Shown here piece by piece: positions 2,786 to 45,994 of a stretch of DNA of 64,000 nt (positions within the stretch are counted from its first letter, which is position 1; each line of letters opens with the position of its first letter). Under the pieces are notes generated by a model, which was not told the DNA's origin, searched no databases, and was given only the letters and a program-made list of their open reading frames with translations. Position numbers and translations under genes: made by a program. The stretch is from Nanobdellota archaeon (lineage in GTDB: Archaea; Nanobdellota; Nanobdellia; Parvarchaeales; Parvarchaeaceae): assembly GCA_021802505.1 (NCBI GenBank), contig JAJZXE010000002.1:11770-75769 (forward strand). The letters are read 5' to 3'.

Positions 2786-3514
2786 ATGAACAGGCATACT
2801 ATCAGAAGAACACTGGAGAATGTTTTGATTGCTTTATCCGATGACAACAGAAGCCTGATAAATCAGAGGCCTTACGAAGATTTGCCACCTTTGGATATAG
2901 AGGATGTAAACAGGATATATTCCGCAGTAGCATCCGTCTTTGGGGCAGATAATGTGCTTATATTCGGCGGAGCCGCGCTGCAAAGATACTGCCAGCACAA
3001 ACCGAAGGATGTAGACCTGATAGTTAACGGCGACATAGCTGCAAACATCGAAAACTTAAGCAGCAGGGGTTTTACCGGTGTAAATGAAAAAACGCTTAAA
3101 GTATTTTTTAATTCCAAGGTATATGAATCAGGGTACCCTATAAACGGCAATAAGATTAAAGTCGAGTATTACTCTCCCGAGGGATTATTGGGCAAAAATG
3201 ACGATTTTAGAGATGTGATGAAAATATCAAAGGAAAGCGATTACCGCGGTCTAAAGATACACTATGCGGATCCTTATACGTTAAGCATGCTCAAGTACAG
3301 AGCGTGGAAAAACCGGCTTGCAAACGGCAGGGCGGATAAGGATCTGATAGACTTGGAAAAGGCGGGAATATTCTACAATAAAACCAATGATCCGCAATAT
3401 CAAAAATTATTGGGGGCTTATACCCCTGGCATGTTTTCACGGTTAAAATCCATATTCAGCGAGACGGTTCATATTCTGCATCAGAACTACCTACGGCAGA
3501 AGCAGCGGGTTTGA
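2786..3514 (+). CDS. Putative nucleotidyltransferase (pol-beta superfamily)
   Basis: LIFGGAAL...KPKDVDLIV (GG..DxD) and C-terminal K...R.DKDLIDL. ATG at 2786 follows a TATA-like tttaata. Confidence 0.6.
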   Translation: MNRHTIRRTLENVLIALSDDNRSLINQRPYEDLPPLDIEDVNRIYSAVASVFGADNVLIFGGAALQRYCQHKPKDVDLIVNGDIAANIENLSSRGFTGVNEKTLKVFFNSKVYESGYPINGNKIKVEYYSPEGLLGKNDDFRDVMKISKESDYRGLKIHYADPYTLSMLKYRAWKNRLANGRADKDLIDLEKAGIFYNKTNDPQYQKLLGAYTPGMFSRLKSIFSETVHILHQNYLRQKQRV

Positions 3515-3553
3515 TTGCAAATCGTTTATAAATAATTATGTTCTGGTAATTAA

Positions 3554-4078
3554 ATGCCCAGCGGTAAAAACCTTGAGGATATCATAGACAGTAAGCATGT
3601 TCAAAAAAAGGAAAAAGCCGGTTATAGTCTAAAAGACAGGGTAAAGAGATACTACACGGAGAATATCGGAAAATTCAGGCAGTATATTGCGCCATTAGCA
3701 GCGATTTCCATAGGGGTTGCAAACTGGAGCAAGGATTTTGCGGCTTCAAAAACAGTCAATCTTCCTTTAATCTATGAAAACACCCGAGTAAGCGGCACGA
3801 TGTGGTACCTGGAGGCTTTCCTGCAGGAGCTTGCCACTATGAGTATATTAGTCGCAACTGCAAAGGAGAAGAAAAAGATAGGGCTTTATGCTCTGGCTTA
3901 TGAAGCGGGAAGCATCATTAATTATTGTTTTTACAGTATGGCTATGAACGGCATTTATGCGAATTATTACGGCAGGATATGGAACGACATATTTTACTTT
4001 TTCCAGATACCGGTGTTTCTGCTTTCATTAAGGCACTATTACGGTGCAAAAAAGCGGGAAAAAAGGAAGCCGGTATAA
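3554..4078 (+). CDS. Hypothetical membrane protein
   Basis: 174-aa ORF with basic N-terminus and 3-4 hydrophobic segments. Confidence 0.65.
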   Translation: MPSGKNLEDIIDSKHVQKKEKAGYSLKDRVKRYYTENIGKFRQYIAPLAAISIGVANWSKDFAASKTVNLPLIYENTRVSGTMWYLEAFLQELATMSILVATAKEKKKIGLYALAYEAGSIINYCFYSMAMNGIYANYYGRIWNDIFYFFQIPVFLLSLRHYYGAKKREKRKPV

Positions 4079-4097
4079 AATGATGCTCTTTTGCAGG

Positions 4098-4748
4098 TTA
4101 ATTTAGATTGACTATGAATTCTCCGAGAACACCGGAGCCTATCCCGAGTGAATGATTCGGGCATTTAAGCATGATTCTGTTACCTAGGTAGTATTCGCCG
4201 GCATCAACCGTGATTGAATGCTTCTGTCCGCATAGCCTGCACCTTTCTACTGTAACGGTTATGTTCTTAAACTGAAACAGCTGGTTCAATGCATCGGTTA
4301 CATGCTTTATAGCTTCCAGGGCATGGAAGTCTTCAACCAGAGTGTCTTCATGCGTATAATTCCGAAGTGATTTAAGATACTGGAGGATTTCCTTGTCTTT
4401 TACCGGATTTTCACTGCAGTTTATTAGATCAAAGAGCCTCGCATACTCTAATTTGACCCTTTTGTCGGTGTTCTTTCCGTCTCTGTAGCTTATCTCCCTG
4501 ATCCCTTTTTTTGACATGTACTCTTTCAATCCCCGTTCTAAGCATCTCACCGCCAATGACAGTGCGGCATCTGGGCAGCCGTAAAGAAAAGAATGTATGG
4601 CTTCGGAATACAAACTCTTGAATTCTTTTTTAATGCCTATAAAATCATACGGGTATATAACTCTTGTCTGGATGAGCATGTTTAGTCTGCTGTTGTAATT
4701 GTCTATGTTCACCAGATTCGGCACCGAAGGAAAGGATATCTCTTCCAT
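4098..4748 (-). CDS. HEPN/DUF4145-like protein with C-terminal Zn ribbon
   Basis: YSEAIHSFLYGCPDAALSLAVRCLE helix pattern, LRNYTHE (R..H) motif, CRLC...CPNH. Confidence 0.6.
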   Translation of the reverse strand: MEEISFPSVPNLVNIDNYNSRLNMLIQTRVIYPYDFIGIKKEFKSLYSEAIHSFLYGCPDAALSLAVRCLERGLKEYMSKKGIREISYRDGKNTDKRVKLEYARLFDLINCSENPVKDKEILQYLKSLRNYTHEDTLVEDFHALEAIKHVTDALNQLFQFKNITVTVERCRLCGQKHSITVDAGEYYLGNRIMLKCPNHSLGIGSGVLGEFIVNLN

Positions 4749-4793
4749 TTATCATATTGGTCAGTCCTGTATATTAACTGTTCTCCAGCGGTT

Positions 4794-6149
4794 TCAGCCG
4801 CATTTTATAGTCCTTTGGATGTATAACGTTGAAAGGTTAAACTCATTTTCCGTTTGTGAGGGAAAATCCGCGCCGAATTCAAAACATACAGTAGAATTTT
4901 GGATGTACATGCTCATTGCAGCGGAATAAAAAGGGATGCGGGTGAGATTGAAGAGCTTTTCACTGTCATACACAACTTCTATCCCGACATGATTTGACAT
5001 ATTGATCAGTAGAAGCTGGGACGGAAGGTATCTGCCGACGGTTTTATTATAGGTTGCATTCAACAGCATATATTTAGTTATGTTAATCGGAAAACTAGAA
5101 TTTACAGTGGTTATGTTGAATTTTTTAAGGTATGTTCCCAATTGTGAAGGGGACAGATGGAATATGCTGATATTGCTGGAGGAGTTCAGATGTTCTTTTC
5201 CGGTTATTATAAAGTAGAACTGGTTCAGCTGCGGAAAGTAGCTTTCGAGGTATTTTCTTGCGTTTTCAGAGCTGTTCTGCTCCAGATATTTCGTTATGTT
5301 TATAGATTTTAAGTCGGAGGCAAATTCAGGTGAATTGCCGATTGCAGAGACTAGAAATGAGTTCGGTATCAAAAGATTCAGGCTGGTATTGTCAAGTATC
5401 TTACTTATGTTTTGTGTGCTCATGTTCGAGGAATTACTCAGAGAAAGCAATGAACTCGCGGAGGATAAGATCCCGTTCAGGTTGATATTGATAAGGTAAT
5501 TCGGATAGCTGTAGTTTAAGACTGCAGAACGGAATGTGCTGTGGCCGAAAGAACCGGTGAAAACCGAAAAGATGGACTGCGTCCCGACGCTGGAGAGAGA
5601 AACTGATTGGACGGGAAACAAAGTGTACAGGACTGCAAACAGGATAAATATAAAAAAGCCCGCGGCGAGGAAGGAGCCGACACCCGGTAAGACTTCATCC
5701 AACCCGCCGGTCATATCTTTCCAGCCGATTAAAACGGAAACTATAACGCCGATGTAAAGCAAGACAATGATATAAAAAACGTATCCTATTATCGTCAGGT
5801 TTAACGATATCAGTGCAAGGAAAAGTCCTGCAAGGGAAGAAGTGGCAAGCAGTATCGCCAGTATACCTCCTTTTTTCTCATTATGTTTAAGCCATTTGCC
5901 GCTTGTGTGGAATAATCTGCTTACAACGATCAGTGAAATCCCGGATATCATGCCAAACGCCGATAAGAAAGCTACATCCGACGGCAATAAAACGGAAGAT
6001 ACGGCTTTTGGCAGGAATGCATCGATCACATTGACCCCCAGGAAGATAAGCAGCCCTATGAAAAACAGAATCAGCCCGGCTGCAAGGGACAAAAAACCGA
6101 TTATAGATAAAATAAGACGGGCCGAACCCGCATTCGAACCTGTATCCAT
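4794..6149 (-). CDS. Multi-pass membrane protein with large extracellular domain
   Basis: About 5 TM helices, then an Asn/Ser-rich domain with many N-x-S/T sequons. Confidence 0.75.
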   Translation of the reverse strand: MDTGSNAGSARLILSIIGFLSLAAGLILFFIGLLIFLGVNVIDAFLPKAVSSVLLPSDVAFLSAFGMISGISLIVVSRLFHTSGKWLKHNEKKGGILAILLATSSLAGLFLALISLNLTIIGYVFYIIVLLYIGVIVSVLIGWKDMTGGLDEVLPGVGSFLAAGFFIFILFAVLYTLFPVQSVSLSSVGTQSIFSVFTGSFGHSTFRSAVLNYSYPNYLININLNGILSSASSLLSLSNSSNMSTQNISKILDNTSLNLLIPNSFLVSAIGNSPEFASDLKSINITKYLEQNSSENARKYLESYFPQLNQFYFIITGKEHLNSSSNISIFHLSPSQLGTYLKKFNITTVNSSFPINITKYMLLNATYNKTVGRYLPSQLLLINMSNHVGIEVVYDSEKLFNLTRIPFYSAAMSMYIQNSTVCFEFGADFPSQTENEFNLSTLYIQRTIKCG

Positions 6150-6172
6150 AAAATTATATGTTCTGATTAATA

Positions 6173-6682
6173 TTAATAGCCTGAGATGAGCCGTTTTATC
6201 TCTTTTTGAAGGTAATCATCGCTGTCCAATGCATCTAATCCTTTTATCAGCCTGAGAGCATTGATCTTTTGCAATGCCTCTTTCTCTAGATTTGAATGCA
6301 ATTTTTTATGTTTTCTTCTGCGGTAATCTTTGCTGCTTTCGATTAGATCTCCTCTTTCTATGTGCAGCAGTTCATGCATGATTACGCTTTTAACCAGTTC
6401 TTCTCTTAAATCGGTGTCAGTAACTCTGAGAAAAATGCTGCTTATCCGTATATAGAACTCCTTTTTTACGATTTTTCTGCTTATCTTTGTTGCTTTTCTG
6501 CGTCTGAAAAGGCCGCGGGCTCTGCTTGTTTTTGTTATTTGCAGGTCGGCGTTGACCCTTCCGAGTACGTTTCTTGGAAGATCCGAATAATTTATGCGGA
6601 TGTAGGCGCCCCTGAACGGCTTGAATACCTTCAGACAGTCCTTAAGGAACAATAGGCACTCGTCTTCTCCGCTTATTTCCAT
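6173..6682 (-). CDS. Putative zinc metallopeptidase (HEXXH)
   Basis: VIMHELLHIERG...H, preceded by LGRV and YIRIS strands. Confidence 0.6.
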   Translation of the reverse strand: MEISGEDECLLFLKDCLKVFKPFRGAYIRINYSDLPRNVLGRVNADLQITKTSRARGLFRRRKATKISRKIVKKEFYIRISSIFLRVTDTDLREELVKSVIMHELLHIERGDLIESSKDYRRRKHKKLHSNLEKEALQKINALRLIKGLDALDSDDYLQKEIKRLISGY

Positions 6683-6692
6683 CCAAAATCAG

Positions 6693-7067
6693 CTATGAAT
6701 ACTTACTATTTTCCGAATTTCCGGCATTTATCCTGCTCTTAAATTCTAGAAACTCGCTGCGAAACCCACTCATTTTGCAGGTAGGGTAATAAACAATAGC
6801 GGATCCCGCTATTTTTGTTTCCACATAGTCTTTGTCGATCAGGGATTTTAATCCGAAACTTATTGAATTTGGACTGATGTCACGGCCATATAAATTGCTG
6901 CATTCCTTTTTTATCCGGTACCAGTCAATGCCCTCTTTGCCTTCGGTCTTTGCCGTGTACAAAGTATACGCGATGATATAGCTGACAGCAGTCCGGCCGA
7001 GTTCTTTATTCTTAACCACAAACCCACGTATTATTGATTCCAAATCCGAATTTTTATCGAGCGCCAT
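6693..7067 (-). CDS. Putative winged-helix DNA-binding protein
   Basis: WYRIKKE...ISPNSISFGLKSLIDKDYVETK...IVYY, a PadR/BlaI-like wHTH pattern. Confidence 0.55.
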   Translation of the reverse strand: MALDKNSDLESIIRGFVVKNKELGRTAVSYIIAYTLYTAKTEGKEGIDWYRIKKECSNLYGRDISPNSISFGLKSLIDKDYVETKIAGSAIVYYPTCKMSGFRSEFLEFKSRINAGNSENSKYS

Positions 7068-10440: not shown

Positions 10441-10455
10441 AATCTTTCTGCTGTC

Positions 10456-11136
10456 TTATTCTTTTTCGCTGTTTGTGTTATAGTTTAAGAGTTTCATCAT
10501 CTTATTCTTTATGTGCGCACCGCGCCACAGAGCGGACAATATCATCATATTGATCACAAAGAACATGTCTCCGAGTCCGACAAGAAAGGCGGCGTATTCG
10601 CGCGGCGTTATCAATCCCTCCTTTGCAAGCGGAAGTATTGCAACCGCATTCATCGCTATCCAGAAAGGGTAGATTATCTCGCTTTCCTTCTGATACAACC
10701 CGTTTTTCTTCAGGTATTTCACCTCTGTTTTGTCGAGATAATTCAGAAGGTGCATCTTCGTAAAGCTGTCCTTTGAATTAAACCAGACTGAGTTGTATAT
10801 ATTATATCCGTTTTTCAACAGATCTTTTTCAAACGTGCGGAGAGCGGAGTAGGCGGTGCCGAAATAATATGCACTTTGGTTGAAGCCCTTTACCGCATAT
10901 TTTTTCATGTAATCGGATGCTGCGGAATAATACATGCCGAAAACGTATTTAAACTGGGATGGGTTCTTTACCGATTCTTCCTCCAATCTCCTATACCTCT
11001 TTTCTCCCACCTTATCCTTGAATTCCGACAGAATTGAATGTAGATCATATCTGGATTTATCCTTTATTTTTTTATCAGGATTTATTGAAACATCCAGCAA
11101 AGAAACGAGATCGGTCCCTTCTTTCTGTTCCGCCAT
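10456..11136 (-). CDS. Hypothetical protein with two C-terminal TM helices
   Basis: 226-aa ORF with hydrophobic C-terminus. Confidence 0.65.
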   Translation of the reverse strand: MAEQKEGTDLVSLLDVSINPDKKIKDKSRYDLHSILSEFKDKVGEKRYRRLEEESVKNPSQFKYVFGMYYSAASDYMKKYAVKGFNQSAYYFGTAYSALRTFEKDLLKNGYNIYNSVWFNSKDSFTKMHLLNYLDKTEVKYLKKNGLYQKESEIIYPFWIAMNAVAILPLAKEGLITPREYAAFLVGLGDMFFVINMMILSALWRGAHIKNKMMKLLNYNTNSEKE

Positions 11137-14128: not shown

Positions 14129-14689
14129 ATGAGCCTGGACTCCCTGGTAGACGATAAAAGTGAAGCGTTACCGGGCGATAAAAATATCAGATACTATTTT
14201 AGGAAGATTTATCTGGAGATTAAAAATTTTTATAAAACGAATCTTTCGGTTAAATTTAAACTGCTCTACGAAAGCGCTGCAGTATTATCCGACAGGCTGC
14301 TTACTGTTTTCGGCATAGATTACCGGGGCGGGCAGGAGGCGAATCCCATCATGGCTAAACTGTTCAATTACATCGGGATGATACCGACTGCGATAGGCTC
14401 ATACCTGGCTGCAAACATATTTTTTTATGTATTTTCCAAAAAGCTTCACAGCAAGGTAGGGCTGCAGAACAGAGAAATGCTGGGAGGCATTTATTTGGGC
14501 CTGGCGGGAGCCGAGTCCCTTGTATCGCTGCATAATTACCTTACCATTAACAACTACAATGACATAATCGCAAATATGAGTTATACCCAGGTACTTTTAC
14601 CAGTAAGTTTGATAGTGGCTGCACCTTTTCTTTATTATTTTTCAAAAAATTATCTTAGAAATAAGCGTGAGGAAAATACAGTCAACTAA
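14129..14689 (+). CDS. Hypothetical membrane protein (DUF5658-like D..LT....G..EANP motif)
   Basis: SDRLLTVFGIDYRGGQEANPIM. ATG at 14129 avoids overlap with the MFS gene. Confidence 0.6.
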   Translation: MSLDSLVDDKSEALPGDKNIRYYFRKIYLEIKNFYKTNLSVKFKLLYESAAVLSDRLLTVFGIDYRGGQEANPIMAKLFNYIGMIPTAIGSYLAANIFFYVFSKKLHSKVGLQNREMLGGIYLGLAGAESLVSLHNYLTINNYNDIIANMSYTQVLLPVSLIVAAPFLYYFSKNYLRNKREENTVN

Positions 14690-15555
14690 TCTACATAAAA
14701 TTCAAGCGAGAATATCTTCATTCTCTCATTTCTTTCCACAGGTTTCAGTCTCGGCATGTATTTTCTTATTACCTTCACTTCGGGTTCCTTGAATCCGTCA
14801 ACGACTGCAATATATCCTCTGTTATTTACCGCTGAAACTGTTGAAGAATTGCCGCATGATGATAATACCTGCAGATCAAGATTGTTTATGCCGTGTTCTT
14901 TTAATATGCCTGCATCCGCACAGATTTCTACGGAGGTTTTTATCCCGTTAAAATCAATTATCGGGTCTTTCCCGTAGGATAGGGAATAATCCGGATCCTT
15001 CGATGTCTCCGAGGGATAAAGCATTAAACTGCCCTCTAAATTGAACTTGGATCCGAGGCCATCGTTAAATTTATACACTGCCTTAAGCACTTTACCATCT
15101 TTTATTACCGGCATAACATTATAAAGTATCCTGTCCTTGTCATAGAACATGGCTGTACCAGGGTAAATCAACATCCCGGAGTTTTTGCTCGCGCTGGCGA
15201 CAGCTGTTAATATCTTTTCAAATTCTTTTTTTGAGTGCGGAATATACGGATAATCGTTAAATTTATCAGATTCCATATCCGCCTTTTCAATCAGTATCTT
15301 TTTTGCATCCCTGGGTGCATATTCTATATAATCTGGCGCATTGAATAGGATATCAATCACCTTTGAGATCTTTTTGCCTTTTATCATGCCTTTCGAGAAT
15401 ACTCCGGGTGGACAGGTAAGACTCCATTCCGGGCCTATCAGTACATCTATTCCCCTTTCTTTTGCATATTTTATGTTTTCTATGACCTCATACGGACTTC
15501 CGTATTCCTGTGTTTCCAGGTTGGTCATTGCACCTAAAAGCATTTCTAATCTCAT
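14686..15555 (-). CDS. Divergent carbon-nitrogen hydrolase (nitrilase-fold) protein, paralog 1
   Basis: LIGPEW (Glu), YK (Lys), EICAD (Cys) triad; PGT; YNVMPV. Confidence 0.65.
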   Translation of the reverse strand: MRLEMLLGAMTNLETQEYGSPYEVIENIKYAKERGIDVLIGPEWSLTCPPGVFSKGMIKGKKISKVIDILFNAPDYIEYAPRDAKKILIEKADMESDKFNDYPYIPHSKKEFEKILTAVASASKNSGMLIYPGTAMFYDKDRILYNVMPVIKDGKVLKAVYKFNDGLGSKFNLEGSLMLYPSETSKDPDYSLSYGKDPIIDFNGIKTSVEICADAGILKEHGINNLDLQVLSSCGNSSTVSAVNNRGYIAVVDGFKEPEVKVIRKYMPRLKPVERNERMKIFSLEFYVD

Positions 15556-15611: not shown

Positions 15612-16253
15612 TTAAGGAGGAGCGGCTAAATGCGCAGGAACTGCAACTCCACCTATATAGGCCGCGAGCAGCGAACCCAGTGTTATAAAGAGAAGGAATA
15701 GGACGATAAATATTATATAATTTCTATTCAGAGGTTTATTGCTCCCATTGCTTCTATATCTGTCCATAATTAATGTAGTAGGATATGCAAATATGCCTGC
15801 TAGACCGAAAGCTGTATAAAGCCCCAACAATGCGAGCGGGGAATTCGTGTAACCTAGGTTATATCCCGACACGCCGTATTCTATCAGAACCAATCCGGCA
15901 AATAACGCCATCAAACCGACATACTGCAGCTTCTGGTTGTATTTGACAGATAAGACAAACCCTAAGGAGATTATTCCCAATAGAATGTACGGATCATAGA
16001 AAAGCAGATTATATGCACCCGGTAAACTCCAGGTAATCTCTCCATAGAAACCCATTACAAGTATGAACACGGTAATAGCGGCAACCATATATATGGAACC
16101 CTGGAGATGAGATTCTATGCTCACTTTTGAATTGGATTTATTTACGTACCTCGCTCTGTAATCCCTGTATATTGCAAGAACCACATAATCCATCAAAAAT
16201 CCTAGAAATGCTACTGTAAACAATTCCAAAGCCAACTCATCTACAAAACCCAT
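15612..16253 (-). CDS. DUF981-family membrane protein
   Basis: FVDELA N-terminus, TWSLPGAYNLLFYDPY, C-terminal AHL. Confidence 0.75.
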   Translation of the reverse strand: MGFVDELALELFTVAFLGFLMDYVVLAIYRDYRARYVNKSNSKVSIESHLQGSIYMVAAITVFILVMGFYGEITWSLPGAYNLLFYDPYILLGIISLGFVLSVKYNQKLQYVGLMALFAGLVLIEYGVSGYNLGYTNSPLALLGLYTAFGLAGIFAYPTTLIMDRYRSNGSNKPLNRNYIIFIVLFLLFITLGSLLAAYIGGVAVPAHLAAPP

Positions 16254-16305
16254 AATTATTACGACTTTTATAACGTTATATAGTTATGCTATCCTTAGGG
16301 TTAGC

Positions 16306-17748
16306 CTATTTCTTTGTCCTGCGCATCTCCGGATTCGTATACCTGTTCCAGAACAATTTATATAATTTAAGTTTATCCGGTAATCTGTTCAGATATGGAA
16401 TGAACGGGAAAAGCAGAAGGACGAAAAACACCAACAAAGCTACGGAACCGTTGTAGAGATCGGTCCACCACGGTATGTTCGCCGTTTCTATTTCAAGCAG
16501 GTTATACGGGATCAGCCAGTACTGTATCGACCATGGCGGAGCCCCGACCCTGAGCATTCCAAACTGTGCGGTCCTCAAGCCATAATGTGTAGCCGCGGTC
16601 GTTAAAGCGCCTGTATCATACAGAAATCTGAGAACATAAGTTTCATCCAGTCCGCTAGCGCTTTCATTCTGTACAACAAACTGGTATTCTCCGGATTCCG
16701 CCATTTGGGTAAGTTCTGCCGTCGCAACTAACAGGGGATTATTGGAATTCATTGCGTTTGCAACGGAGCCGTTGTTTTCAAAATAGGAATACGCCTGTGC
16801 AAAATCAAGTTTCTGCTGCGAGGCGTTTTCAGCGGATAAAACCGCGAGTTCATCCGTTTTGTTTGCGGACTGGATATAAAAGGAATAAGGTACGGAAAAA
16901 TAAACGGATCTCGTGCTGAAAGTATAAGGATCTATGGTGTCCAGGTATGTTGCCGTGCCCGATGAGAAATTGTATTCCTGCAGTAATGTCGCCGCGGTAT
17001 TCGAAGGGTTTGAATCTGCGGCCTGGCTTATCGTAAGCGGCGCTATATACGGAGAGCTGAATACAAATGCGAATACCATTACTATTATAAATATATACAC
17101 CATCCTTCTGTACATTTTTTTATGGTCCGCTTTCACCATCTTATACGGAATGTCTTTTCTATAAGGTTTGCTCAGTCCGTCTTTTTTAACGAGAGAATAA
17201 TGGAGAAAGATAAGCAATAACAGCATAATGGGTATGATCGCTACATGCCATCCTAAAACTGCGCCCTGATTCAACGGATTTACCCAGAAACCCAGGCCGA
17301 ATCCGTTCCACAGGTCAGCGCCCGCCTTGTCATTCCACTGCGAAAGCAGTCCGCCCTGGACTCCCACCCCGAATGCAAATTCAAGAAGAACGAGCATCAA
17401 TAAGACACTGCCTATCATCCAAACCAGTTTTTTCTTTTTAAACGCAGACGTCGAAAAATTCACAAATAAATGTATAAACATCAGGGTCACAAACGCCTCT
17501 GCCGCCCACAGGTGGATACTCCTGAAAAGAGTACCGACAGCGGTTGTATCCCACCAGTACGGGCCAAAGATAAGCATAACCATTCCTGTAAGAGCAAGTA
17601 TCACAAACAATTCCAGAAGATATATCCCTATGGTGAAAAAGAAGCTGTTTCCGTAGGAAGGGACGTATTTTATGTACTGATCCTGCATCAGACCGATAAT
17701 CGGCTTAAAAAACGCCTTTATTCCCTTTTCATCGTCATTCATATTCAT
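16306..17748 (-). CDS. Cytochrome b/b6 N-terminal-domain protein with extracellular insert
   Basis: Four heme-ligand His: RSIHLWAAEAFVTLMFIH and GWHVAIIPIMLLLLIFLH. Confidence 0.85.
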   Translation of the reverse strand: MNMNDDEKGIKAFFKPIIGLMQDQYIKYVPSYGNSFFFTIGIYLLELFVILALTGMVMLIFGPYWWDTTAVGTLFRSIHLWAAEAFVTLMFIHLFVNFSTSAFKKKKLVWMIGSVLLMLVLLEFAFGVGVQGGLLSQWNDKAGADLWNGFGLGFWVNPLNQGAVLGWHVAIIPIMLLLLIFLHYSLVKKDGLSKPYRKDIPYKMVKADHKKMYRRMVYIFIIVMVFAFVFSSPYIAPLTISQAADSNPSNTAATLLQEYNFSSGTATYLDTIDPYTFSTRSVYFSVPYSFYIQSANKTDELAVLSAENASQQKLDFAQAYSYFENNGSVANAMNSNNPLLVATAELTQMAESGEYQFVVQNESASGLDETYVLRFLYDTGALTTAATHYGLRTAQFGMLRVGAPPWSIQYWLIPYNLLEIETANIPWWTDLYNGSVALLVFFVLLLFPFIPYLNRLPDKLKLYKLFWNRYTNPEMRRTKK

Positions 17749-22503: not shown

Positions 22504-22694
22504 TAGGAAAGGAAGACGTTTTCTACGCCTTTTTTGCCGGAATAGCGTCATTTTTAAGCGCGTTTATATTGATATTTCTTGCCGTTCCCTCGTACTTTCA
22601 GAACGACCCGTCAATTTTTTCCATAACGATTGTTATTGTTATGGAGGTTACCGTGTTCTTTTCCCTGTTTTTCATTATGAGGAAAAAGCATTAA
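22500..22694 (+). CDS. Small two-TM membrane protein
   Basis: 64 aa, two hydrophobic helices, ATGA overlap with the helicase stop. Confidence 0.6.
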   Translation: MIGKEDVFYAFFAGIASFLSAFILIFLAVPSYFQNDPSIFSITIVIVMEVTVFFSLFFIMRKKH

Positions 22695-23242
22695 TCTTCA
22701 TTTAGATAGTCTTTTATCCTGTTTATCCCGTATTTTGCGCCATTGACCGTTTTATTTTTTAAACCGCTAAAGTATGTTTTAACCCTGTTATCTCCTTCAT
22801 CATCCATGTATCTCTTGAAATCGCTGCCGGCATCGGATAAATAACCGGAGAGTTTGCCCATCCCAGAGTATGCCTTTTCACCGATGTTATAAAACAGATT
22901 TTTTAATTTGGAGGCATGTCCCGGATCTCCGGAATCAAAGAATTTCTCCATCCCGTATTTTTTAGCGAGGCTGTTCCATGCCGCTTTGTTGTATTCGCTC
23001 AGAAGCTTCTTTTCGCGCTCAGAACTTATCTCGCCAATTTTACTACCGACAAAATAGATAAGATCTGTAGGGGTGTACTGTTTTATGTTTTTTACGAAGT
23101 AATTCGCATACTTTTCAAACTGGTTTTCTTTTATACTGTCAAGGCCTTTTATCCTTTCAAACGTGTTGTACAGTCCGTAAAACCCGCTGTTCCCCACGCT
23201 TTTCGTGCGGTTTTCATTTTTCAAAAGATCATTCAATTTCAT
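22691..23242 (-). CDS. Hypothetical protein (amphipathic helical)
   Basis: 183-aa ORF preceded by strong SD GGAGGT (23249-23254). Confidence 0.75.
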   Translation of the reverse strand: MKLNDLLKNENRTKSVGNSGFYGLYNTFERIKGLDSIKENQFEKYANYFVKNIKQYTPTDLIYFVGSKIGEISSEREKKLLSEYNKAAWNSLAKKYGMEKFFDSGDPGHASKLKNLFYNIGEKAYSGMGKLSGYLSDAGSDFKRYMDDEGDNRVKTYFSGLKNKTVNGAKYGINRIKDYLNED

Positions 23243-26707: not shown

Positions 26708-27412
26708 TTACTTGTTTCCACGCTTGTCAGCGAATCTATTCTTAAGGTAGTGCATGCCAAGGTAGACTCCTGTTAATGTGGACAATACGGATGCTCCCGC
26801 ATATCCCAGAGTAGAGAGAGGTGCCCCGTACAATGTACCGTCTATCACAGACAGCAGCGACCCCAAACCGGCATAAGCCCCCGCACCCAAAAAGCCTGCA
26901 GATAAAAGAGCCATCTTGTATCTATTGCCCGCATACTCACCGCTATCATTGACTTTAAAATTCTTCAAATGAATGTAGGATCTGGCGGCGATTCCTCCGA
27001 CTACCAAAGAGCCGGCCGCTGCAAATATACCAAGAGTGTTATTTGGTCCTCCGGATATTCCTAAGCTATACAGTAGATGGGAAACAGTGTGAAAATAAGG
27101 ATTGTTAGTTACGATGTTTAAGATGGATTCATGACTTCCTGTTTTGTACGAAACGCCAGTGGGTGTGTTTACGGCTCCTATGTCATTTAGCCTGTCCAAT
27201 ACATCAGCCTCGGTCATTGCGGCACCGGCACTTAATCCAAGTATACCAAGCAGATGTTTTGTCCTGATAAAACACCCTGTCTTTCTGCAAGGAGTATGCC
27301 CGTTTCCAGAAGTTTTATCGTTCCTCGACGTGGCAGCGTAGTACTCGACGACCTTGTCTATGCTGCTCATGGCATTGTCGTTTGTGTCAACTATCTTATC
27401 GAGCTTTTTCAT
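26708..27412 (-). CDS. Hypothetical membrane protein
   Basis: 234 aa with Gly/Ala-rich hydrophobic helices. Confidence 0.65.
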   Translation of the reverse strand: MKKLDKIVDTNDNAMSSIDKVVEYYAATSRNDKTSGNGHTPCRKTGCFIRTKHLLGILGLSAGAAMTEADVLDRLNDIGAVNTPTGVSYKTGSHESILNIVTNNPYFHTVSHLLYSLGISGGPNNTLGIFAAAGSLVVGGIAARSYIHLKNFKVNDSGEYAGNRYKMALLSAGFLGAGAYAGLGSLLSVIDGTLYGAPLSTLGYAGASVLSTLTGVYLGMHYLKNRFADKRGNK

Positions 27413-27424
27413 ACTTAATATCTT

Positions 27425-27781
27425 TTATTTTTCCTCGTAAATGTGTTCACCCATCTCGGATGGTTTTCCAACATAAAAATGACCCTCGTTTATTTTTTCA
27501 TCGAGCGTAGTGTATTTCGCATCCGAAAATTTCTTCCTATTTGTGGAAGTGACATCCATATTTTTATGTTTATGGGCATAATGCAGTGATAGACATGCAA
27601 ATGCTGTTCCAAATCCCGAGGATACCGCGGAATAAAGCGCGTTATTCTCGAGTATACAGCCTGCTGTCAGCACGTAGTATATCGCGGACATCGAACCCCA
27701 CAGGGCTATATCCTTTAAATAATCGGTTTTTTCCCCTGCTGTAGTGTTGTTAGCAATCTCATCTAATTTTTTCCCGTTCAT
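27425..27781 (-). CDS. Hypothetical two-TM protein
   Basis: 118 aa; SD AGGTGA at 27786-27791. Confidence 0.7.
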   Translation of the reverse strand: MNGKKLDEIANNTTAGEKTDYLKDIALWGSMSAIYYVLTAGCILENNALYSAVSSGFGTAFACLSLHYAHKHKNMDVTSTNRKKFSDAKYTTLDEKINEGHFYVGKPSEMGEHIYEEK

Positions 27782-27981: not shown

Positions 27982-28773
27982 ATGCGAAAAGTATTAAACG
28001 TGGGAGTTATAAATATAAATACTGTCCATCCGGTATATTCAAGTCTTGAAAAAACCCTGGGTATCATAGAAAAAAACAAATACTCTGGTTTAGACATTCT
28101 AATGGGTCCGGAATGGGGATTAATGAACAATAACGTAGCAAATGAAAGACCTCACTCTCCAGCGGAATTCAAAGATATCCTTGCTAAGATAAAGGATGCG
28201 AGCAGATACTCTAATACGCTTATAATCCCGGGCACGGCGGTCATACATACAAAAGAGAACAAAATGTACAATATTCTGCCGGTCTTCTACAAAGGACAGG
28301 TCATTTTCTCGACGATAAAAAAAGCGGACGGCGGCACGTCATTCTTCGATATAAACCACAACTATGAACTGATAGGAAAGGATTACCAGATAAGGAATAC
28401 ATTCTACTGGAAGGGGATGAAGATAGGGATAGAAATATGTGCGGACTCAGACACTTTGCATGAACAGGGGGAAAACAATCTAAATATCCAGATCTTAAGT
28501 TCGAGCGGAGTGCGTAATACTACTCTTGCAATAAAGGAAAACGGCTACCTTATATGCGCGGACGGAAACCGTTCTGCCGGCAGAAAAGTCTATGTAATCA
28601 GAAAAAGCACGGACCAAAGTGATGTGAATGTGTTCACGTATATGGATTTACTTAAATCAAATGACTATACTGCAATCAGCGGTGCTCCATTCGAATTTTT
28701 GCCGGTAGAGAAAAAACATCAGAATATGAATGTATATCGGATAGAGATGGAACTAAACGATGATATTCCTTAG
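27982..28773 (+). CDS. Divergent carbon-nitrogen hydrolase (nitrilase-fold) protein, paralog 2
   Basis: LMGPEW, IKK, EICAD; IPGT; YNILPV; alignable with 14686-15555. Confidence 0.65.
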   Translation: MRKVLNVGVININTVHPVYSSLEKTLGIIEKNKYSGLDILMGPEWGLMNNNVANERPHSPAEFKDILAKIKDASRYSNTLIIPGTAVIHTKENKMYNILPVFYKGQVIFSTIKKADGGTSFFDINHNYELIGKDYQIRNTFYWKGMKIGIEICADSDTLHEQGENNLNIQILSSSGVRNTTLAIKENGYLICADGNRSAGRKVYVIRKSTDQSDVNVFTYMDLLKSNDYTAISGAPFEFLPVEKKHQNMNVYRIEMELNDDIP

Positions 28774-32960: not shown

Positions 32961-34265
32961 ATGTTTGATTCGATGAATATAAAAAAGGAAATACTATCTG
33001 CATTACACGAAATGGGCTTCGATGAACCTACCGAAGTACAAAAACAGGCAATTCCTTTGGGATTAGAGGGTAAAGATATAGTCGTAAAATCAAAGACCGG
33101 CAGCGGAAAAACCGCGGCTTTTCTGATTCCCATACTGAATAGCCTTGAAAATTCGGAAAGGCCGGGCGCGATGGTGATAGTACCGACAAGAGAACTGGCT
33201 CTGCAGGTCACGGACGTAGCGGAGAATATAGGGAGAAATCTCAAGATTAAAACGGTAACTGTTTACGGCGGAGCGTCGATAAATTATCAGATAAGGGAGA
33301 TAAGAAACGGCGCGAATATAATAGTAGGGACCCCTGGAAGGGTGATTGACCTAATAAAAAGAGGAGAACTGCCCACTAATTCAATAAGGTTTCTCGTACT
33401 GGATGAGGTTGATATAATGCTGGATATGGGTTTTATTGATGATATAAAGTACATATTGTCCAGATTACCGCAAAAAAGACAGACAATGTTCTTTTCCGCG
33501 ACTATTCCGGAAGAGATAAAACACATTACGCTGAAATATACGAACGATGCGGTGAATGTGAACGTAGGTTCCGGGGAAGTGACTGTTGACACTATAGAGC
33601 ATTTTTACTCCATTGCGAACGGCAGCGATAAATTTTCCGTGCTTCTCGCATATATCGATTCCAAACAGCCTGAAAAGGCGATAATATTCTGCAAAACACA
33701 GAGGAATGCGGAGAGAATTTATTCTATGGCACAAAGCATGAATCTTCCCGCGGTCTTAATGCACGGCGGACTGAGCCAGAACAGGAGGGAGCACTCCCTC
33801 AATTCATTCAGAGAGGGCGTGAAGATGCTAATAGCTACGAATGTGGCTTCGAGAGGACTGGACATAGACAACGTTTCCGATATAATAAACTTTGATGCGG
33901 AGGAAGACCCGAAAGCTTACGTTCACCGGGTGGGCAGAAGCGCGAGGATGGGAAAAAGCGGGAGAGCCTTTACCATATTCACACCCAGGGAAAAATATCT
34001 TGTTTATGAGATTGAAAGCTATGCAAAGATAAAAATGACCGCGTTGGAGTTTGATCTCGCCCAATACAGGGAGAAGGTAAAGGAATTTTACAAGGGTGAC
34101 ACTCGAAACTATGAGGATATGGCGATGAGAAGGCGCGGTTTCAGCCACGGCGGAAATTTCAGCAGAAACAGAAATACGGGAAGGAATTTCAACGGCGGCA
34201 GGAAAAACAGTTTTTCAGGGTTTAACGGCAAAAAATTCAGGCACAGCTATACAAAAGAAGACTAA
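32961..34265 (+). CDS. DEAD-box RNA helicase
   Basis: Q motif, SKTGSGKT, PTRELA, DEVD, SAT, HRVGRSAR; R/G/N-rich tail. Confidence 0.95.
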   Translation: MFDSMNIKKEILSALHEMGFDEPTEVQKQAIPLGLEGKDIVVKSKTGSGKTAAFLIPILNSLENSERPGAMVIVPTRELALQVTDVAENIGRNLKIKTVTVYGGASINYQIREIRNGANIIVGTPGRVIDLIKRGELPTNSIRFLVLDEVDIMLDMGFIDDIKYILSRLPQKRQTMFFSATIPEEIKHITLKYTNDAVNVNVGSGEVTVDTIEHFYSIANGSDKFSVLLAYIDSKQPEKAIIFCKTQRNAERIYSMAQSMNLPAVLMHGGLSQNRREHSLNSFREGVKMLIATNVASRGLDIDNVSDIINFDAEEDPKAYVHRVGRSARMGKSGRAFTIFTPREKYLVYEIESYAKIKMTALEFDLAQYREKVKEFYKGDTRNYEDMAMRRRGFSHGGNFSRNRNTGRNFNGGRKNSFSGFNGKKFRHSYTKED

Positions 34266-34648
34266 TGCTTGTTTTTCAGGAAGTTTATATAATCTATAAA
34301 TGGTTTCGGATTATCAATGCTTGTGAAAGTTATAAAGAATGCCGCGGTGCTGGCCAGCGCGATTATGCTGGTTATTTCCCAGATTATCAATGGATTCATG
34401 AAGAAAATTGAAATAAATGATACTATAAAACCGACTGAAAATGAAAATGCGGCGGTGACCAAAAAAGTAAAGGATAATGTATACCTGAAAGAATTGTTCA
34501 GCATGTAACTGCCGAAGAACTTGTTTGCATCCTGTCTTGAACCATACTTTGATGCCAGGGATAAAAAATACATAAAACTCAGCGCGGATATCAACATCAA
34601 AATCCCGGATATTATACCGGTTATACCAAAAATTTCATTGATTATCAT
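34262..34648 (-). CDS. Small 3-TM membrane protein, partner B of pair 1
   Basis: Three hydrophobic helices; ATGA overlap with the upstream gene. Confidence 0.7.
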   Translation of the reverse strand: MIINEIFGITGIISGILMLISALSFMYFLSLASKYGSRQDANKFFGSYMLNNSFRYTLSFTFLVTAAFSFSVGFIVSFISIFFMNPLIIWEITSIIALASTAAFFITFTSIDNPKPFIDYINFLKNKH

Positions 34649-35010
34649 GCAAACCTCTTAAATCTCAGATACCAGAACCTAATATCTAATATTATGAATA
34701 TGATAGTAAGAACTGCGAAGCCAAAACCCGAGAAGAAAGTGGAATACTGCAATAGTGTAGAAGGATTAAACCCGTTATCCAGATAATCGGATAAAACCAT
34801 TACACCGGCGAGAAAACCGAATATCCCTGCAAATACAAAATAAGGTATCTTAATTGTCTCGGGGTTGAGAAAATAACTGGTTAACGGGGCCTTGTCTTTT
34901 CTGTGTTTTATCAACGCCAGTAATATAATGGTAGAGTAATACATGACAAATACTCCGAGTACGCTTAAAATTCCAAACACTACCCCCTCCATGAGTTTTA
35001 GCTCTACCAT
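34645..35010 (-). CDS. Small 3-TM membrane protein, KHRKDKAPL family (partner A of pair 1)
   Basis: IKHRKDKAPLTSYFLN...FWYLRFKRFA; paralogs at 46352 and 47552. Confidence 0.8.
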   Translation of the reverse strand: MVELKLMEGVVFGILSVLGVFVMYYSTIILLALIKHRKDKAPLTSYFLNPETIKIPYFVFAGIFGFLAGVMVLSDYLDNGFNPSTLLQYSTFFSGFGFAVLTIIFIILDIRFWYLRFKRFA

Positions 35011-42247: not shown

Positions 42248-42353
42248 TTATTATCATAGTATAAATACTTTTCATGGAAATAACAGATCATAAAGGATAT
42301 GACAGGCACTTACCGAAAGTTTAATATACAAGTGGTTACTATCATAATATATT

Positions 42354-42360
42354 GAGGTGA
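42354..42360 (+). promoter_or_regulatory. Shine-Dalgarno site of sod
   Basis: GAGGTGA 6 nt before ATG 42367. Confidence 0.7.
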
Positions 42361-42366
42361 TATTTT

Positions 42367-42984
42367 ATGACAAACTACGATGACCAGTACGAGGTACAAA
42401 AATTAAATTATAAAGTTCTAGATGGATTTTCTGAAAAGCAGATAAGCTTCCATCATGATATACATTACGCGGGTTACGTAAAGAAAAGGAACGAAGTTAA
42501 TAGCAAGCTTAAGACAGCGGATAAAGCGACTGCCAATGCAAATTACAGCGAATTCAGGTCGCTTAAAAAAGAAGAGACGTTTAATGCGAGCGGCCAGCTT
42601 CTGCACGAATTATACTTTGAGATGTTCGGCGGTGACGGCAAGTATACAGAAGACTTGGATATTGTAAAAAAGATAAATGAGGATTTCGGAAGTTTTGACA
42701 ATTTTAAACTTGATATGATGGCTACCGCAAAGGCAGCAAGAGGATGGGCACTGCTCGCGATAGACCCTACAGACAATAAATTAAGGGTGTTTCTTGCGGA
42801 TGCGCATAATGACGGCGCGGTCTGGGGGTCCATACCACTGATAGCTTTGGATGCCTATGAACATGCTTTCTACGTTGATTACGGGCCTGACAAGGCTAAA
42901 TACCTCGAGCCTTTCTTCAAGAACCTAGATTGGAAGAAACTGAATGAAAGGTATGTAAAATTCAAGGATGTATATAAAAAGTGA
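42367..42984 (+). CDS. sod: Fe/Mn superoxide dismutase
   Basis: HHDIHYAGYV, LHELYF, DAYEHAFYVDY. Confidence 0.95.
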   Translation: MTNYDDQYEVQKLNYKVLDGFSEKQISFHHDIHYAGYVKKRNEVNSKLKTADKATANANYSEFRSLKKEETFNASGQLLHELYFEMFGGDGKYTEDLDIVKKINEDFGSFDNFKLDMMATAKAARGWALLAIDPTDNKLRVFLADAHNDGAVWGSIPLIALDAYEHAFYVDYGPDKAKYLEPFFKNLDWKKLNERYVKFKDVYKK

Positions 42985-43061
42985 ATACTCCGAATTTTGC
43001 ATGAAGCCTGCTTTGTAAAGCAGCAGTATATCTGGTTTACACCAAAGATACGACAATAAAA

Positions 43062-43349
43062 CTAGGAAGAATCGCTGGTTATGCTTATTCTGTAGGCAAG
43101 TCCCAGGGAATACCTTGAAGAAATCTCTTTCAATTTATTTTCTATTTGATATATATTGGATAGGGCATAAAAGTCTATTTCTGCGCTGTTTTTATACTTG
43201 CTGACAAGACTCAGATTAAAATTATTTATCTGGCCGATTTTCTTTATATCCTCCTTGATTTCATTTATCTTTTCAAAATAAAAAAGATCGGATTTTCCAA
43301 TGAAAACGGATTTGCAGTCCAAAAGACTATCCTCTAAACCCTTATACAT
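43062..43349 (-). CDS. Hypothetical protein
   Basis: Likely start ATG 43349 (MYKGLEDSLL), overlapping the upstream stop. Confidence 0.55.
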   Translation of the reverse strand: MYKGLEDSLLDCKSVFIGKSDLFYFEKINEIKEDIKKIGQINNFNLSLVSKYKNSAEIDFYALSNIYQIENKLKEISSRYSLGLAYRISITSDSS

Positions 43350-43734
43350 CTTTTTTGCCGCCATGTCTGCCCTGTACAATCCTGTATACATATGCAATAG
43401 TATATCCGCATATCCCTATTTTAACTTCTTTATTACTCGTAAAATCGATGTCAAAATTGGAGTATTCCATTTTTCCCAGCCCTTTGTGGAATAACAGCTG
43501 CAGATATTCGCTGGTGACCCCTTTCATCTCGGCGGAATTCAACCTATAGGAATAATCAAGCACCTCCGTATAGCCATTGTCGATTATGTATGAAAGCTCT
43601 TTTATAATCCGATTATACTGTCTGCCGAACACCTTCTCTACCGGCTTTTCGTTCTTTATTTTGCAGAGCCTCTCCAATACCGATCCGTATTTTGAGTTAT
43701 ATGAATCATTTTCAACCTTTTTCTTATTTTGCAT
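43342..43734 (-). CDS. Hypothetical protein
   Basis: Likely start ATG 43734 with a TATA-like box ~25 nt upstream. Confidence 0.6.
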   Translation of the reverse strand: MQNKKKVENDSYNSKYGSVLERLCKIKNEKPVEKVFGRQYNRIIKELSYIIDNGYTEVLDYSYRLNSAEMKGVTSEYLQLLFHKGLGKMEYSNFDIDFTSNKEVKIGICGYTIAYVYRIVQGRHGGKKDV

Positions 43735-43775
43735 AGCAGTATTACTGAAAAACAATGTTATAAATACCTTTTTAA

Positions 43776-44504
43776 TCAGAATATAGGTCTCATGCTTTTG
43801 CCTCTGCTTCCAAAGTCTGCCTCGACAGAAGCCAGCAAGTCTGAAAACTCGGTCATTTCTATCGCTCTTCCATAAAAAGCTATGGCGGCACGGGGCGTTC
43901 CAGCCACGGAGAATAGCCCGAAATCCGCGTATATATCGGGATTGTGGCCGCTGTTTAAAGTTTTCCTGTAAAGAATGTGCCTTGCTTTTCTAGGATCCAG
44001 ATCATTGAACTTGTATCCAAATATGTATGAAAAGTTTATATTTACAGAATTGGAGTAATTCAATTCCGGCAGCCTGTCATTAAAATCCGTCTCCTCTCTT
44101 AATATCCTGTTTCTTGTATCAGCTAGCCTCTTGTAGTGTTTACCCCATACCTTACTTGCAATCTGATCTCCATCTGATAAATTAAATAAGCTGTATACCC
44201 TATCTAAATCATCGCTGCCCAGTCTTTGCAGTTCATTATATGCGTTTTCCGTTAGGTTTTTTACACCGTTATGCAGAGAACCAAAATATTTTATGTAGCT
44301 TTTAAAATACGGCCTGCTGCCATGGTTTATCAATTTTTTGTACAATTCCCTGTTATTTCTAACCGCATATACATTAAGAAGAGCCTCGCTCATGACCGGC
44401 CCGAAATCAGACAAAAGATCAGACAGAGACTTTGACCCTTCCAGATCTGTTCTTTTGCCGTATTCTCTGTGGTGATTTTGATCCAAAACAATCCGCATAA
44501 TCAC
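43776..44504 (-). CDS. Hypothetical protein
   Basis: 242-aa ORF overlapping the upstream stop. Confidence 0.65.
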   Translation of the reverse strand: MIMRIVLDQNHHREYGKRTDLEGSKSLSDLLSDFGPVMSEALLNVYAVRNNRELYKKLINHGSRPYFKSYIKYFGSLHNGVKNLTENAYNELQRLGSDDLDRVYSLFNLSDGDQIASKVWGKHYKRLADTRNRILREETDFNDRLPELNYSNSVNINFSYIFGYKFNDLDPRKARHILYRKTLNSGHNPDIYADFGLFSVAGTPRAAIAFYGRAIEMTEFSDLLASVEADFGSRGKSMRPIF

Positions 44505-45409
44505 TTCGATTTAAATCCGGGGTAGACAGATCTGTATTTTTCCGTGTACTTGTTGATGAGCATACTCTGGCTGAATTCTGCGTATCTTAGATGTCTACTG
44601 ATGCTTTTAACTCTGTGTGCATCGGAAGACAGGAAAGAATGTTTTGCATCCTGCTGATTTATCGGGTGTATGATTCCTATCTTTACCTCCTTCTTGTCAT
44701 TCCGGTATATGATTATGTTGTCTAAGTTTAAATTGTTATGATAAAGATTATTTGAATTTACTTCTGAGATAACACTGATAATCTGTTTCCTTAGATCGGC
44801 AAGCTCTGCTTTCCTTTTCTCGTATACTTCCTTTCTTGAAAAATATTCCTTCAGGTGCGCTTCTTCCATTGCAAGCTTCTTTACCCCGTTTTTGGCTATA
44901 AAACTATCAAGCTCATCCTTTGGGATAAGATCCTGCAGGGAAGTTACCCTGCCCATTTTCTCCGATATCAGCCGCTCGTCCCAATCTCCGTAATGGTTAA
45001 GGTAATCCCTGAGAGTTGTCATTCTTGGAGCGTAATTCTTAAATTCCCTGCCATCAAATGAAGCTGTTACATAACCGGTTTTTCTGCCCGCATCATCTAC
45101 CAGCAGTGCGATTGGTTTTGGAAAGTTCTCGGGTTTCAAAGAGTACAGCTCGCTTATAAGTTTATACTGCCTCAAGAAATAACCGTCAAAAAATCCAGTA
45201 TTATAAAGATTGTTAAACTGGTTATACTCTGCAGCATTTACCTTCGGATATGCATCTTTAAAATGCCTCTCATTGACCGACAAACCCAAATCCTCAAAAT
45301 AACCCGCTGCTTTTACTAAATCTCTGCTCAAAGTCGGATTGCCTTCCTTGTCATGTTTGTATGGCAGGCCACTGAGCACCTTTTCGATATCAGATAATTT
45401 CTTTGCCAT
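44501..45409 (-). CDS. Protein kinase-fold protein with degenerate catalytic motifs
   Basis: ENFPKPIAL...GYVT, NNLYHNNLNLDNIII, IGIIHP. ATG at 45409 preferred over TTG at 45433. Confidence 0.55.
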   Translation of the reverse strand: MAKKLSDIEKVLSGLPYKHDKEGNPTLSRDLVKAAGYFEDLGLSVNERHFKDAYPKVNAAEYNQFNNLYNTGFFDGYFLRQYKLISELYSLKPENFPKPIALLVDDAGRKTGYVTASFDGREFKNYAPRMTTLRDYLNHYGDWDERLISEKMGRVTSLQDLIPKDELDSFIAKNGVKKLAMEEAHLKEYFSRKEVYEKRKAELADLRKQIISVISEVNSNNLYHNNLNLDNIIIYRNDKKEVKIGIIHPINQQDAKHSFLSSDAHRVKSISRHLRYAEFSQSMLINKYTEKYRSVYPGFKSK

Positions 45410-45484
45410 ATCTATTGATTCGCTGTTTTTCAATACGAGTTAAGTGTTATTCTGATATAAATAACTTACTACTTAATAATAAAT

Positions 45485-45994
45485 CTAAGCCTTATAATCA
45501 GCGAGTTTCAGGCCCGTAGCAATAACTATCTTTCTCAGAGTATTCTTATCGATATCTTTTATTTTATCATAATCCAAGTAGACTTTGTACTCATTTGAAG
45601 GAGAGTATTTAATACACGCGACGGGGGTGATTGTTATTTTGCCGTGATCCTGGTTGTCTCTCTTTTTAACCCCGAAATATTCCGCTTCGGCCGCGGACCT
45701 GCTCTTGTATACCCCCTTAAGATAGAATAGCTGGGAACTGTCCTGCATTTTATTATCCGCAGGCCTGCCCTTCCGTATTACATAATCGCTGGATTTCGGC
45801 GGAAAACGGCCCTGATCCATCTTTTTCCTCAGGGAATCGTACTTTGCCTCCTTGAAATACCCGGATAAATCACTGTAGGAAAATTCCAGCAGGTCCTGCA
45901 CACTGCTGTTTGATATGTCCAGAAGAACCGATTCCAGACCGGTTCTAACCGCAGTGACTCCATCAAGGTACTTTTTTGCATTTTTCGTGAACAT
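45485..45994 (-). CDS. Hypothetical protein
   Basis: 169-aa ORF with an upstream TATA. Confidence 0.65.
   Translation of the reverse strand: MFTKNAKKYLDGVTAVRTGLESVLLDISNSSVQDLLEFSYSDLSGYFKEAKYDSLRKKMDQGRFPPKSSDYVIRKGRPADNKMQDSSQLFYLKGVYKSRSAAEAEYFGVKKRDNQDHGKITITPVACIKYSPSNEYKVYLDYDKIKDIDKNTLRKIVIATGLKLADYKA

Follow-up and report, generated by a model that had tools for sequence, protein, structure and literature searches.

A putative N-terminal sorting tag on unrelated, genus-restricted proteins of Parvarchaeum

Tagged genes in the window

A 64,000-nucleotide stretch of a Parvarchaeum genome (the window; G000:C5:11770-75769 of the source genome G000, which comprises 763 kb and is 84% complete) encodes a series of unrelated proteins carrying, close to their N-termini, a short peptide of the type L-[DE]-x-[ILV]-[ILV] (referred to as the tag). 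The strict motif was defined as this pattern with its start at residues 2-12. Genes were predicted with a caller written for this analysis, in which a hexamer coding score was combined with an upstream profile and which was blind to the motif; 830 genes were obtained from G000, 816 of them encoding at least 60 amino acids, and every count given below depends on these calls. The tags and tag-like peptides in the window were as follows.

2813..2827, + strand: LENVL, residues 10-14, gene 2786-3514 (assigned from language-model features to the AbiEii-like nucleotidyltransferase superfamily; no Pfam match)
3572..3586, + strand: LEDII, residues 7-11, gene 3554-4078 (small hydrophobic orphan)
7029..7043, - strand: LESII, residues 9-13, gene 6693-7067 (weak winged-helix match)
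11095..11109, - strand: loose form LVSLL, orphan 10456-11136 (LISIL in one ortholog)
14135..14149, + strand: LDSLV, residues 3-7, membrane orphan 14129-14689 (strict in 7/7 family members)
15535..15549, - strand: LEMLL, probably beta strand 1 and not a tag, nitrilase-like gene 14686-15555
23222..23236, - strand: loose form LNDLL, orphan 22691-23242 (orthologs, L[NS][DEN][IV][LI])
27389..27403, - strand: LDKIV, residues 4-8, Gly/Ala-rich hydrophobic orphan 26708-27412
27752..27766, - strand: loose form LDEIA, residues 6-10, orphan 27425-27781 (profile score of 9.4 bits, outside the training set)
43062..45994, - strand: five-gene run conserved in many Parvarchaeum genomes, with the tag or a variant in every gene, namely:
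45923-45937, - strand: LESVL, gene starting at 45994
45374-45388, - strand: IEKVL, gene starting at 45409 (kinase-fold protein)
44412-44426, - strand: LSDLL, gene starting at 44504 (the weakest of the run)
43663-43677, - strand: LERLC, gene starting at 43734
43323-43337, - strand: LEDSL, gene starting at 43349

The original prediction, made from the sequence of the window, had listed 12 such N-terminal peptides. All of them were found at their positions, and nine of the 12 starts were chosen identically by the gene caller; for the genes starting at 43349, 45409, and 44504, the peptides were present, but neighbouring in-frame starts were preferred. Six of the 12 matched the strict pattern (3554, 27412, 14129, 15555, 2786, and 45994, the last at residue 20) and six were looser, while two of the loose examples (43349 and 45409) had the strict form in orthologs or paralogs. 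Two tags had been overlooked: those of 7067 (LESII) and 43734 (LERLC; LEELC in orthologs). The peptide at 15555 is probably not a tag: it likely forms the first beta strand of the nitrilase fold, and orthologs start with MKIEMLLGAM and MKMRLGG. This gene (14686-15555) and that at 27982-28773 are diverged nitrilase-fold paralogs that are kept in Parvarchaeum (GPEW motif) and have little or no Pfam signal. The loose tag of gene 22691-23242 sits within an N-terminus that is conserved as a whole. At 26708-27781 (- strand), two tagged Gly/Ala-rich hydrophobic orphans adjoin each other, and a partial homolog was found in one of the 30 relatives searched.

The tags or variants of the five-gene run, all five genes of which are orphans, were retained within the genus; that of the first gene (45994), found at residue 20 in the window, begins at residue 8 in an ortholog with a shorter N-terminus. 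The run is built around the 45409 protein, whose kinase fold contains HNNL in place of HGDL, and hence no catalytic Asp, as well as a long helical insert; it is likely inactive as a kinase. Four small HGDL kinases, 22-24% identical to it, all carried the strict tag (4/4 aligned), while a Foldseek search with the kinase model returned weak kinase matches only.

Enrichment, residue specificity, and distribution

The positional enrichment anticipated in the original prediction, in orphan N-termini relative to internal positions, shuffled sequences, and conserved proteins, was found genome-wide in G000, to which the following counts refer unless otherwise indicated. Of the 816 proteins, 36 carried the strict motif, whereas its frequency at internal positions predicted 5.6 (p 1e-17), and 200 shuffles of residues 2-16 gave 6.7±2.4 matches (maximum, 14). 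The excess persisted after exclusion of the window (30 vs 5.5 expected) and with first-ATG starts (33 vs 5.7), and was absent for the reversed motif (3 vs 5.5) and at C-termini (5 vs 7.7); the second LDEKI of the 27781 protein, originally described as C-terminal, lies 26 residues before the end. The motif followed 34 of 410 true starts, but only 12 of 1420 internal Met residues. Its Leu was mostly located at residues 3-7, and the consensus was K/S/E, K/R/S/D/G, L, E/D, E/S/K, L/I/V, and L/I/V, then polar.

Single-position changes abolished most of the excess, which in this comparison was 35 vs 3.1 for the motif itself: 3 matches vs 3.3 expected when the acidic residue was replaced by Lys/Arg/Gln (L[KRQ]x..), 1 vs 1.7 with an aromatic residue at +3 (L[DE]x[FY]..), 13 vs 6.5 for L[SNT], 9 vs 4.5 for L[DE]x[polar].., and 6 vs 2.0 for I[DE]. 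Because of this residue specificity, the motif is not just any amphipathic helix. An unconstrained expectation-maximization search over the full set of N-termini ended in a generic amphipathic helix and was dropped; therefore, a fixed-core profile trained on 41 families and scored leave-family-out was used instead. At least 9 bits, the cut-off, were reached by 26/410 genus-only proteins, 3/391 others, and 10/1074 internal windows.

The motif was concentrated in proteins without relatives outside the genus. Among the 477 proteins without a BLAST match in approximately 1.8 Mb of non-Parvarchaeum DNA (the no-hit class, which includes some conserved proteins because the comparison DNA is of this size only), 35 had the motif vs 3.1 expected (11-fold), whereas it occurred in one of the 339 proteins with a match outside the genus (2.5 expected), as had been claimed for housekeeping genes. 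The RibA exception named in the same claim is an I-variant (IDSII), a form that shows a weak excess among conserved proteins as well (8 vs 2.6). At the family level, the motif was found in 38/441 genus-only families and 3/301 others (p 2e-6). Pfam matches at a threshold of 1e-8 were obtained for none of the seven tagged window proteins, 6/31 other tagged proteins, and 38/60 untagged proteins (the initial 60 of a draw of 100 out of 333).

Three features that played no part in choosing the tagged proteins also distinguished them. Lys or Arg was found within three residues before the Leu in 26/33 tagged families vs 45/113 internal matches (p 1e-4), five families (nitrilase strand, pilin, helix-turn-helix, membrane start, and HEPN-like) having been removed beforehand; the Tyr content was 6.8% in 30 soluble tagged bodies vs 4.3% in 248 others (p 4e-8); and an N-terminal hydrophobic segment was present in 1/34 tagged genus-only proteins vs 99/376 others (p 0.001). 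Tyr content did not predict hidden tags in untagged proteins (rho 0.11, p 0.10). The codons of the tag were fully varied, and it is therefore a protein-level feature. Upstream of the tagged genes, no shared promoter was found beyond ordinary likeness to the transcription factor B recognition element and TATA box, and no DNA-level reassortment (swapping of promoter plus tag) was seen. Clustering of strict-tag genes along the genome gave p 0.07; a stronger result was obtained when the set was extended by hand, but is biased.

The enrichment was replicated in another Parvarchaeum species (G012; 310 of approximately 900 kb covered), with 15 matches vs 2.2 expected, in 13 Parvarchaeum-type loci (11 vs 0.6, many being orthologs of one gene), and in 65 families not represented in G000 (4 vs 0.5). 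These results confirmed that the N-terminal tag on unrelated, genus-restricted proteins of Parvarchaeum is real. We estimate that the genome contains approximately 35-45 true tags when ortholog-backed variants are counted, and the tag likely serves as an address label for unrelated proteins.

For comparison outside the genus, 60-200 kb was examined per genome. Ten other Nanoarchaeia genomes together gave 26 matches vs 10.2 expected, a ratio equal to that of the control, four free-living Thermoprotei (100 kb each; 8 vs 3.1, 2.6-fold, three being pilin-like by eye), while bacterial loci gave 2 vs 2.6 and TACK (Thaumarchaeota, Aigarchaeota, Crenarchaeota, and Korarchaeota) loci 0 vs 1.1. The Thermoprotei value indicates that archaeal N-termini have a background excess of the motif. 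When only soluble no-hit proteins were considered, Nanoarchaeia gave 12 vs 4.9 and Thermoprotei 1 vs 1.5, a contrast that is only suggestive of spread to other Nanoarchaeia. In G053 and G039, tag-like starts preceded kinases, a HAD hydrolase, and PpnP. The G039 PpnP was rejected as a sign of spread: its extension is conserved, but the tag is strict in 1/7 homologs and a variant in one. Since the Nanoarchaeia excess equals that of the control and the PpnP homologs are mostly tagless, the tag is established for Parvarchaeum only. The PpnP nucleoside phosphorylase (L029:12241-12645) has a conserved N-terminal extension of 35-40 residues, and its family was found in 3/301 phylum genomes. The G053 locus (L038:531-19223) is an island of histidine kinase, receiver, AMP-binding enzyme, JAB, and ThiF genes, with several tag-like starts.

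The background excess raises the alternative that the peptides share no function at all, L-E-x-L-L N-cap-like helices being common in archaea and accumulating in young helical genes. The Thermoprotei and pooled Nanoarchaeia counts agree with this, as do the PrkA2 (see below) and nitrilase matches, which are explainable as native elements, and the tag-like start of the G039 PpnP, which is not retained in five of its six homologs. It is difficult to reconcile with an excess that is limited to genus-only proteins and has a sharp residue specificity, with the lack of excess among soluble no-hit proteins of Thermoprotei, with the three unselected correlates, and with retention of the tag over linkers of variable length. 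We regard this alternative as very improbable, and for Parvarchaeum as already largely refuted.

Retention, gain and loss of the tag, and its cargo

Among the 15 loci related to gene 3554-4078, nine had the strict tag and four a variant, and two paralogs lacked both the tag and the linker. Four orthologs of a 725-amino acid phosphoesterase-like protein kept the tag with linkers to the first strand of 9, 9, 13, and 15 residues. SpoVR carried the tag in G000 and G004 but not in G018, in which a stop codon is located directly upstream. PrkA2 homologs had the strict tag in 22/32 cases and a variant in nine more. An apparent loss in a PrkA2 labelled Micrarchaeaceae (P0027) was dismissed: its 609-amino acid cluster mate is tagged, and the tagless form is therefore a short start call. 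Close PrkA2 matches were found in 4/201 phylum genomes, three of which are Parvarchaeum. The highly diverged PrkA1-PrkA2-DUF444-SpoVR operon (L152:6465-13197; G000:C5:81465-88197) was not found in two metagenome scans.

The cargo comprises kinases, a phosphoesterase-like protein, the AbiEii-like nucleotidyltransferase, SpoVR, small membrane proteins, and a weak PD-(D/E)XK lead; a search against PHROGs gave three weak matches in 35. In AlphaFold models of two cargo proteins, the tag was predicted as a short helix (residues 7-13 and 6-11), which in the model of PrkA2 is of low confidence and is followed by a loop. Taken together, the enrichment, replication, variable linkers, and gain and loss uphold the earlier description of a portable peptide that follows basic residues on unrelated proteins. 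In a separate observation, G000:C22:6447-8677 encodes a multi-pass membrane protein separate from its repeat-rich tail (MAQAAREEKARQDALREQAR repeats), whereas the counterpart in G012 is a single gene of 781 amino acids; the split is possibly a frameshift or an assembly error in the repeat.

Known signals, candidate readers, and the proposed function

The tag was compared with known N-terminal signals. For Sec/Tat, an h-region in the first 38 residues was found in 1/34 tagged genus-only proteins, which is a pilin. Class III (type IV pilin) signals have a [KR]-G-Q site followed by a hydrophobic stretch, whereas the tags are followed by polar residues; two pilin-like matches (C28:15093 and C8:13385) were set aside as false positives of the tag pattern. 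The PCNA-interacting protein (PIP) box, QxxLxxFF, has the same L-x-x-hydrophobic-hydrophobic spacing after basic residues, but the tag lacks Gln at -3 (0/27 families), its aromatic form is not enriched (L[DE]x[FY][FLIV]; 1 vs 1.7 expected), and its cargo includes membrane proteins. Similarly to the encapsulation peptides of microcompartments, which are short terminal amphipathic helices with an L-E-x-L-I-like start and a linker on unrelated proteins, the tag is terminal and portable; however, its helix is shorter and has no excess of hydrophobic residues at +7/+8 (27% and 24% vs 41% and 36% in internal matches), and neither a bacterial microcompartment shell (PF00936) nor an encapsulin shell of family PF04454, the only encapsulin family searched, was found in G000 at 84% completeness.

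Type III substrates and chaperone-binding motifs share the context of the tag: they are N-terminal, and their cargo is unrelated, fast-evolving, without a Sec signal, and inclusive of membrane proteins. The tag, as with type III signals, is uncleaved as far as the sequence tells, and differs in that its consensus is defined and five residues long and that no swapping of promoter plus tag was seen at the DNA level; type III machines are known from bacteria. RxLR/PEXEL of oomycetes and Plasmodium is a short basic-x-Leu-acidic element near the N-terminus of unrelated, lineage-specific parasite proteins, as is the tag, but occurs after a Sec signal peptide and is cleaved, whereas the tag has no such peptide (1/34) and is continued by two aliphatic residues.

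A short terminal helix with a polar linker on unrelated cargo, with signal peptides excluded, would suggest a signal for one receptor. We propose, with slightly less than even confidence, that a Sec-independent pathway may recognise the tag and hand the proteins bearing it to the attached host cell; export is favoured by the cargo classes, by the rapid turnover of these proteins from species to species, and by a lifestyle bound to a host. For the basic residue(s) and L-[DE]-x-[ILV]-[ILV], one or two turns of helix are predicted before the polar linker, and a single reader with a hydrophobic groove (a chaperone or ATPase) would bind this helix. The cargo would then cross a cytoplasmic bridge or pilus-type conduit, and the kinases, phosphoesterase, nucleotidyltransferase, and small membrane proteins might act on the host. 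The original prediction had proposed a secretion or chaperone-binding signal of host-directed effectors, and the cargo and the scarcity of signal peptides fit this, but neither a reader nor an export machine was found. The only candidate readers seen in G000 were a TadA/VirB11 ATPase encoded together with two TadC genes (C1:7235-10695) and one HerA/DUF87 ATPase (C13:11062-12381; weak CedD match), the single link being a partial neighbourhood: the Tad locus is flanked by tagged genes in G000 and only partly in G012. Overall, the original observation is confirmed and holds genome-wide, and its interpretation is partly supported; we regard the peptide as a putative, undescribed N-terminal sorting tag of Parvarchaeum.

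Several observations weigh against export. No export machine or tag-reading protein was identified in G000, and a VirB4/TraG-family ATPase (PF19044) was not found in this genome at 84% completeness. The Thermoprotei excess described above belongs here, as does the expectation that approximately 3-6 of the 36 strict matches are due to chance; by eye, at most eight resemble first helices, first strands, or pilin starts. The PrkA/SpoVR operon is normally an intracellular system, and the partners of tagged PrkA2 and SpoVR in this operon are not clearly tagged: PrkA1 has the SLDEFL of its family and DUF444 has no N-terminal tag. Furthermore, the element [LFYI]x[ED][YF][LIMVF] occurs within the first 45 residues of 59/123 distant PrkA-like proteins (strict tag in three), so that the PrkA2 tag may be a remodelled native first helix of the family, which weakens PrkA2 as proof of an appended tag.

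A different use of the same helix would be that of a docking motif gathering unrelated proteins on one internal hub (for example, the cytoplasmic face of the attachment structure or an AAA+ adaptor) without export. The short helix, polar linker, and absence of signal peptides fit equally, and tagged proteins include PrkA2/SpoVR, one that is winged-helix-like, and membrane proteins with N-termini that could be exposed to the cytoplasm; the missing VirB4/TraG-family ATPase is also in line with it. On the other hand, confinement to the N-terminus, without an excess at internal positions or C-termini, would be more typical of threading signals than of docking motifs, forty fast-evolving, genus-restricted, and often gained or lost proteins are many for one hub in a genome of 0.8-0.9 Mb, and no microcompartment or encapsulin shell was found in G000. 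We consider internal docking doubtful, while taking it seriously. A terminal, exposed, hydrophobic tag with a polar linker would also suit a degron or a signal for an unfoldase (proteasome ATPase, Cdc48, or Lon), by which the lifetime of toxic or regulatory proteins would be kept short, and the kinases and AbiEii-like protein could be toxic. Conserved regulators and enzymes do not have the tag (1/339), it is present on membrane proteins and in a row of five genes of one operon, and the fixed acidic second position with a variable distance from Met is not known to match an N-end rule; a degron appears highly unlikely.

According to PMC5864196, Parvarchaeota physically interact with Thermoplasmatales; according to PMC11420986, cytoplasmic bridges are present in other Nanobdellota, and the proteins building or crossing the bridges and tubes of DPANN archaea are unknown even though the structures have been imaged; according to PMC11329633, the tubes between DPANN archaea and hosts are sufficiently wide for an unfolded protein. 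The accessible parts of these three papers, and those of bioRxiv 10.64898/2026.05.13.725050, 10.64898/2026.06.21.733656, and 10.64898/2026.06.04.730037, contained no such motif or DPANN effectors. A description of the motif was not found in the literature searched, although subscription papers or preprint supplements could hold one.

The tag may bear on the means by which DPANN symbionts control their hosts. It groups approximately one tenth of the genus-specific proteins of Parvarchaeum into one class with a common five-residue handle, and provides a cargo list and a bait peptide for its reader. In the farther-reaching form of the export proposal, which we put forward more tentatively, approximately 40 effectors (kinases, the pseudokinase operon, phosphoesterase, nucleotidyltransferase, an AAA+ remodelling module, and membrane proteins) would be injected into the archaeal host by an undescribed Sec-independent machine reading a K/R-x-L-[DE]-x-aliphatic-aliphatic helix, and variants of the tag would play the same role in other orders of Nanobdellota. 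If export is true, the cargo would be the first list of candidate effectors for these symbionts; if injection is true, the tag would be the first archaeal effector-translocation signal and a rule for reading effectors from DPANN dark matter. A sorting code not previously described in archaea would still result if the tag served for internal docking or as a degron.

Other genes were noted in passing. The window encodes a 4221-amino acid surface protein (49940-62605, - strand) with an N-terminal hydrophobic segment and DUF2341 repeats, to which giant proteins on C8 (2992 amino acids) and C22 (1380 amino acids) are related. It also contains a DUF981 and cytochrome b-like gene pair (15612-17748, - strand) and three pairs of membrane proteins of 100-138 amino acids (34262-35010, 46038-46768, and 47250-47917), the first of each pair having KHRxDKAPL. 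Elsewhere in G000, at C18:1224-3569, a KaiC-like gene, a KaiC-like/GTPase fusion, and a roadblock-like gene were seen by eye in a row.

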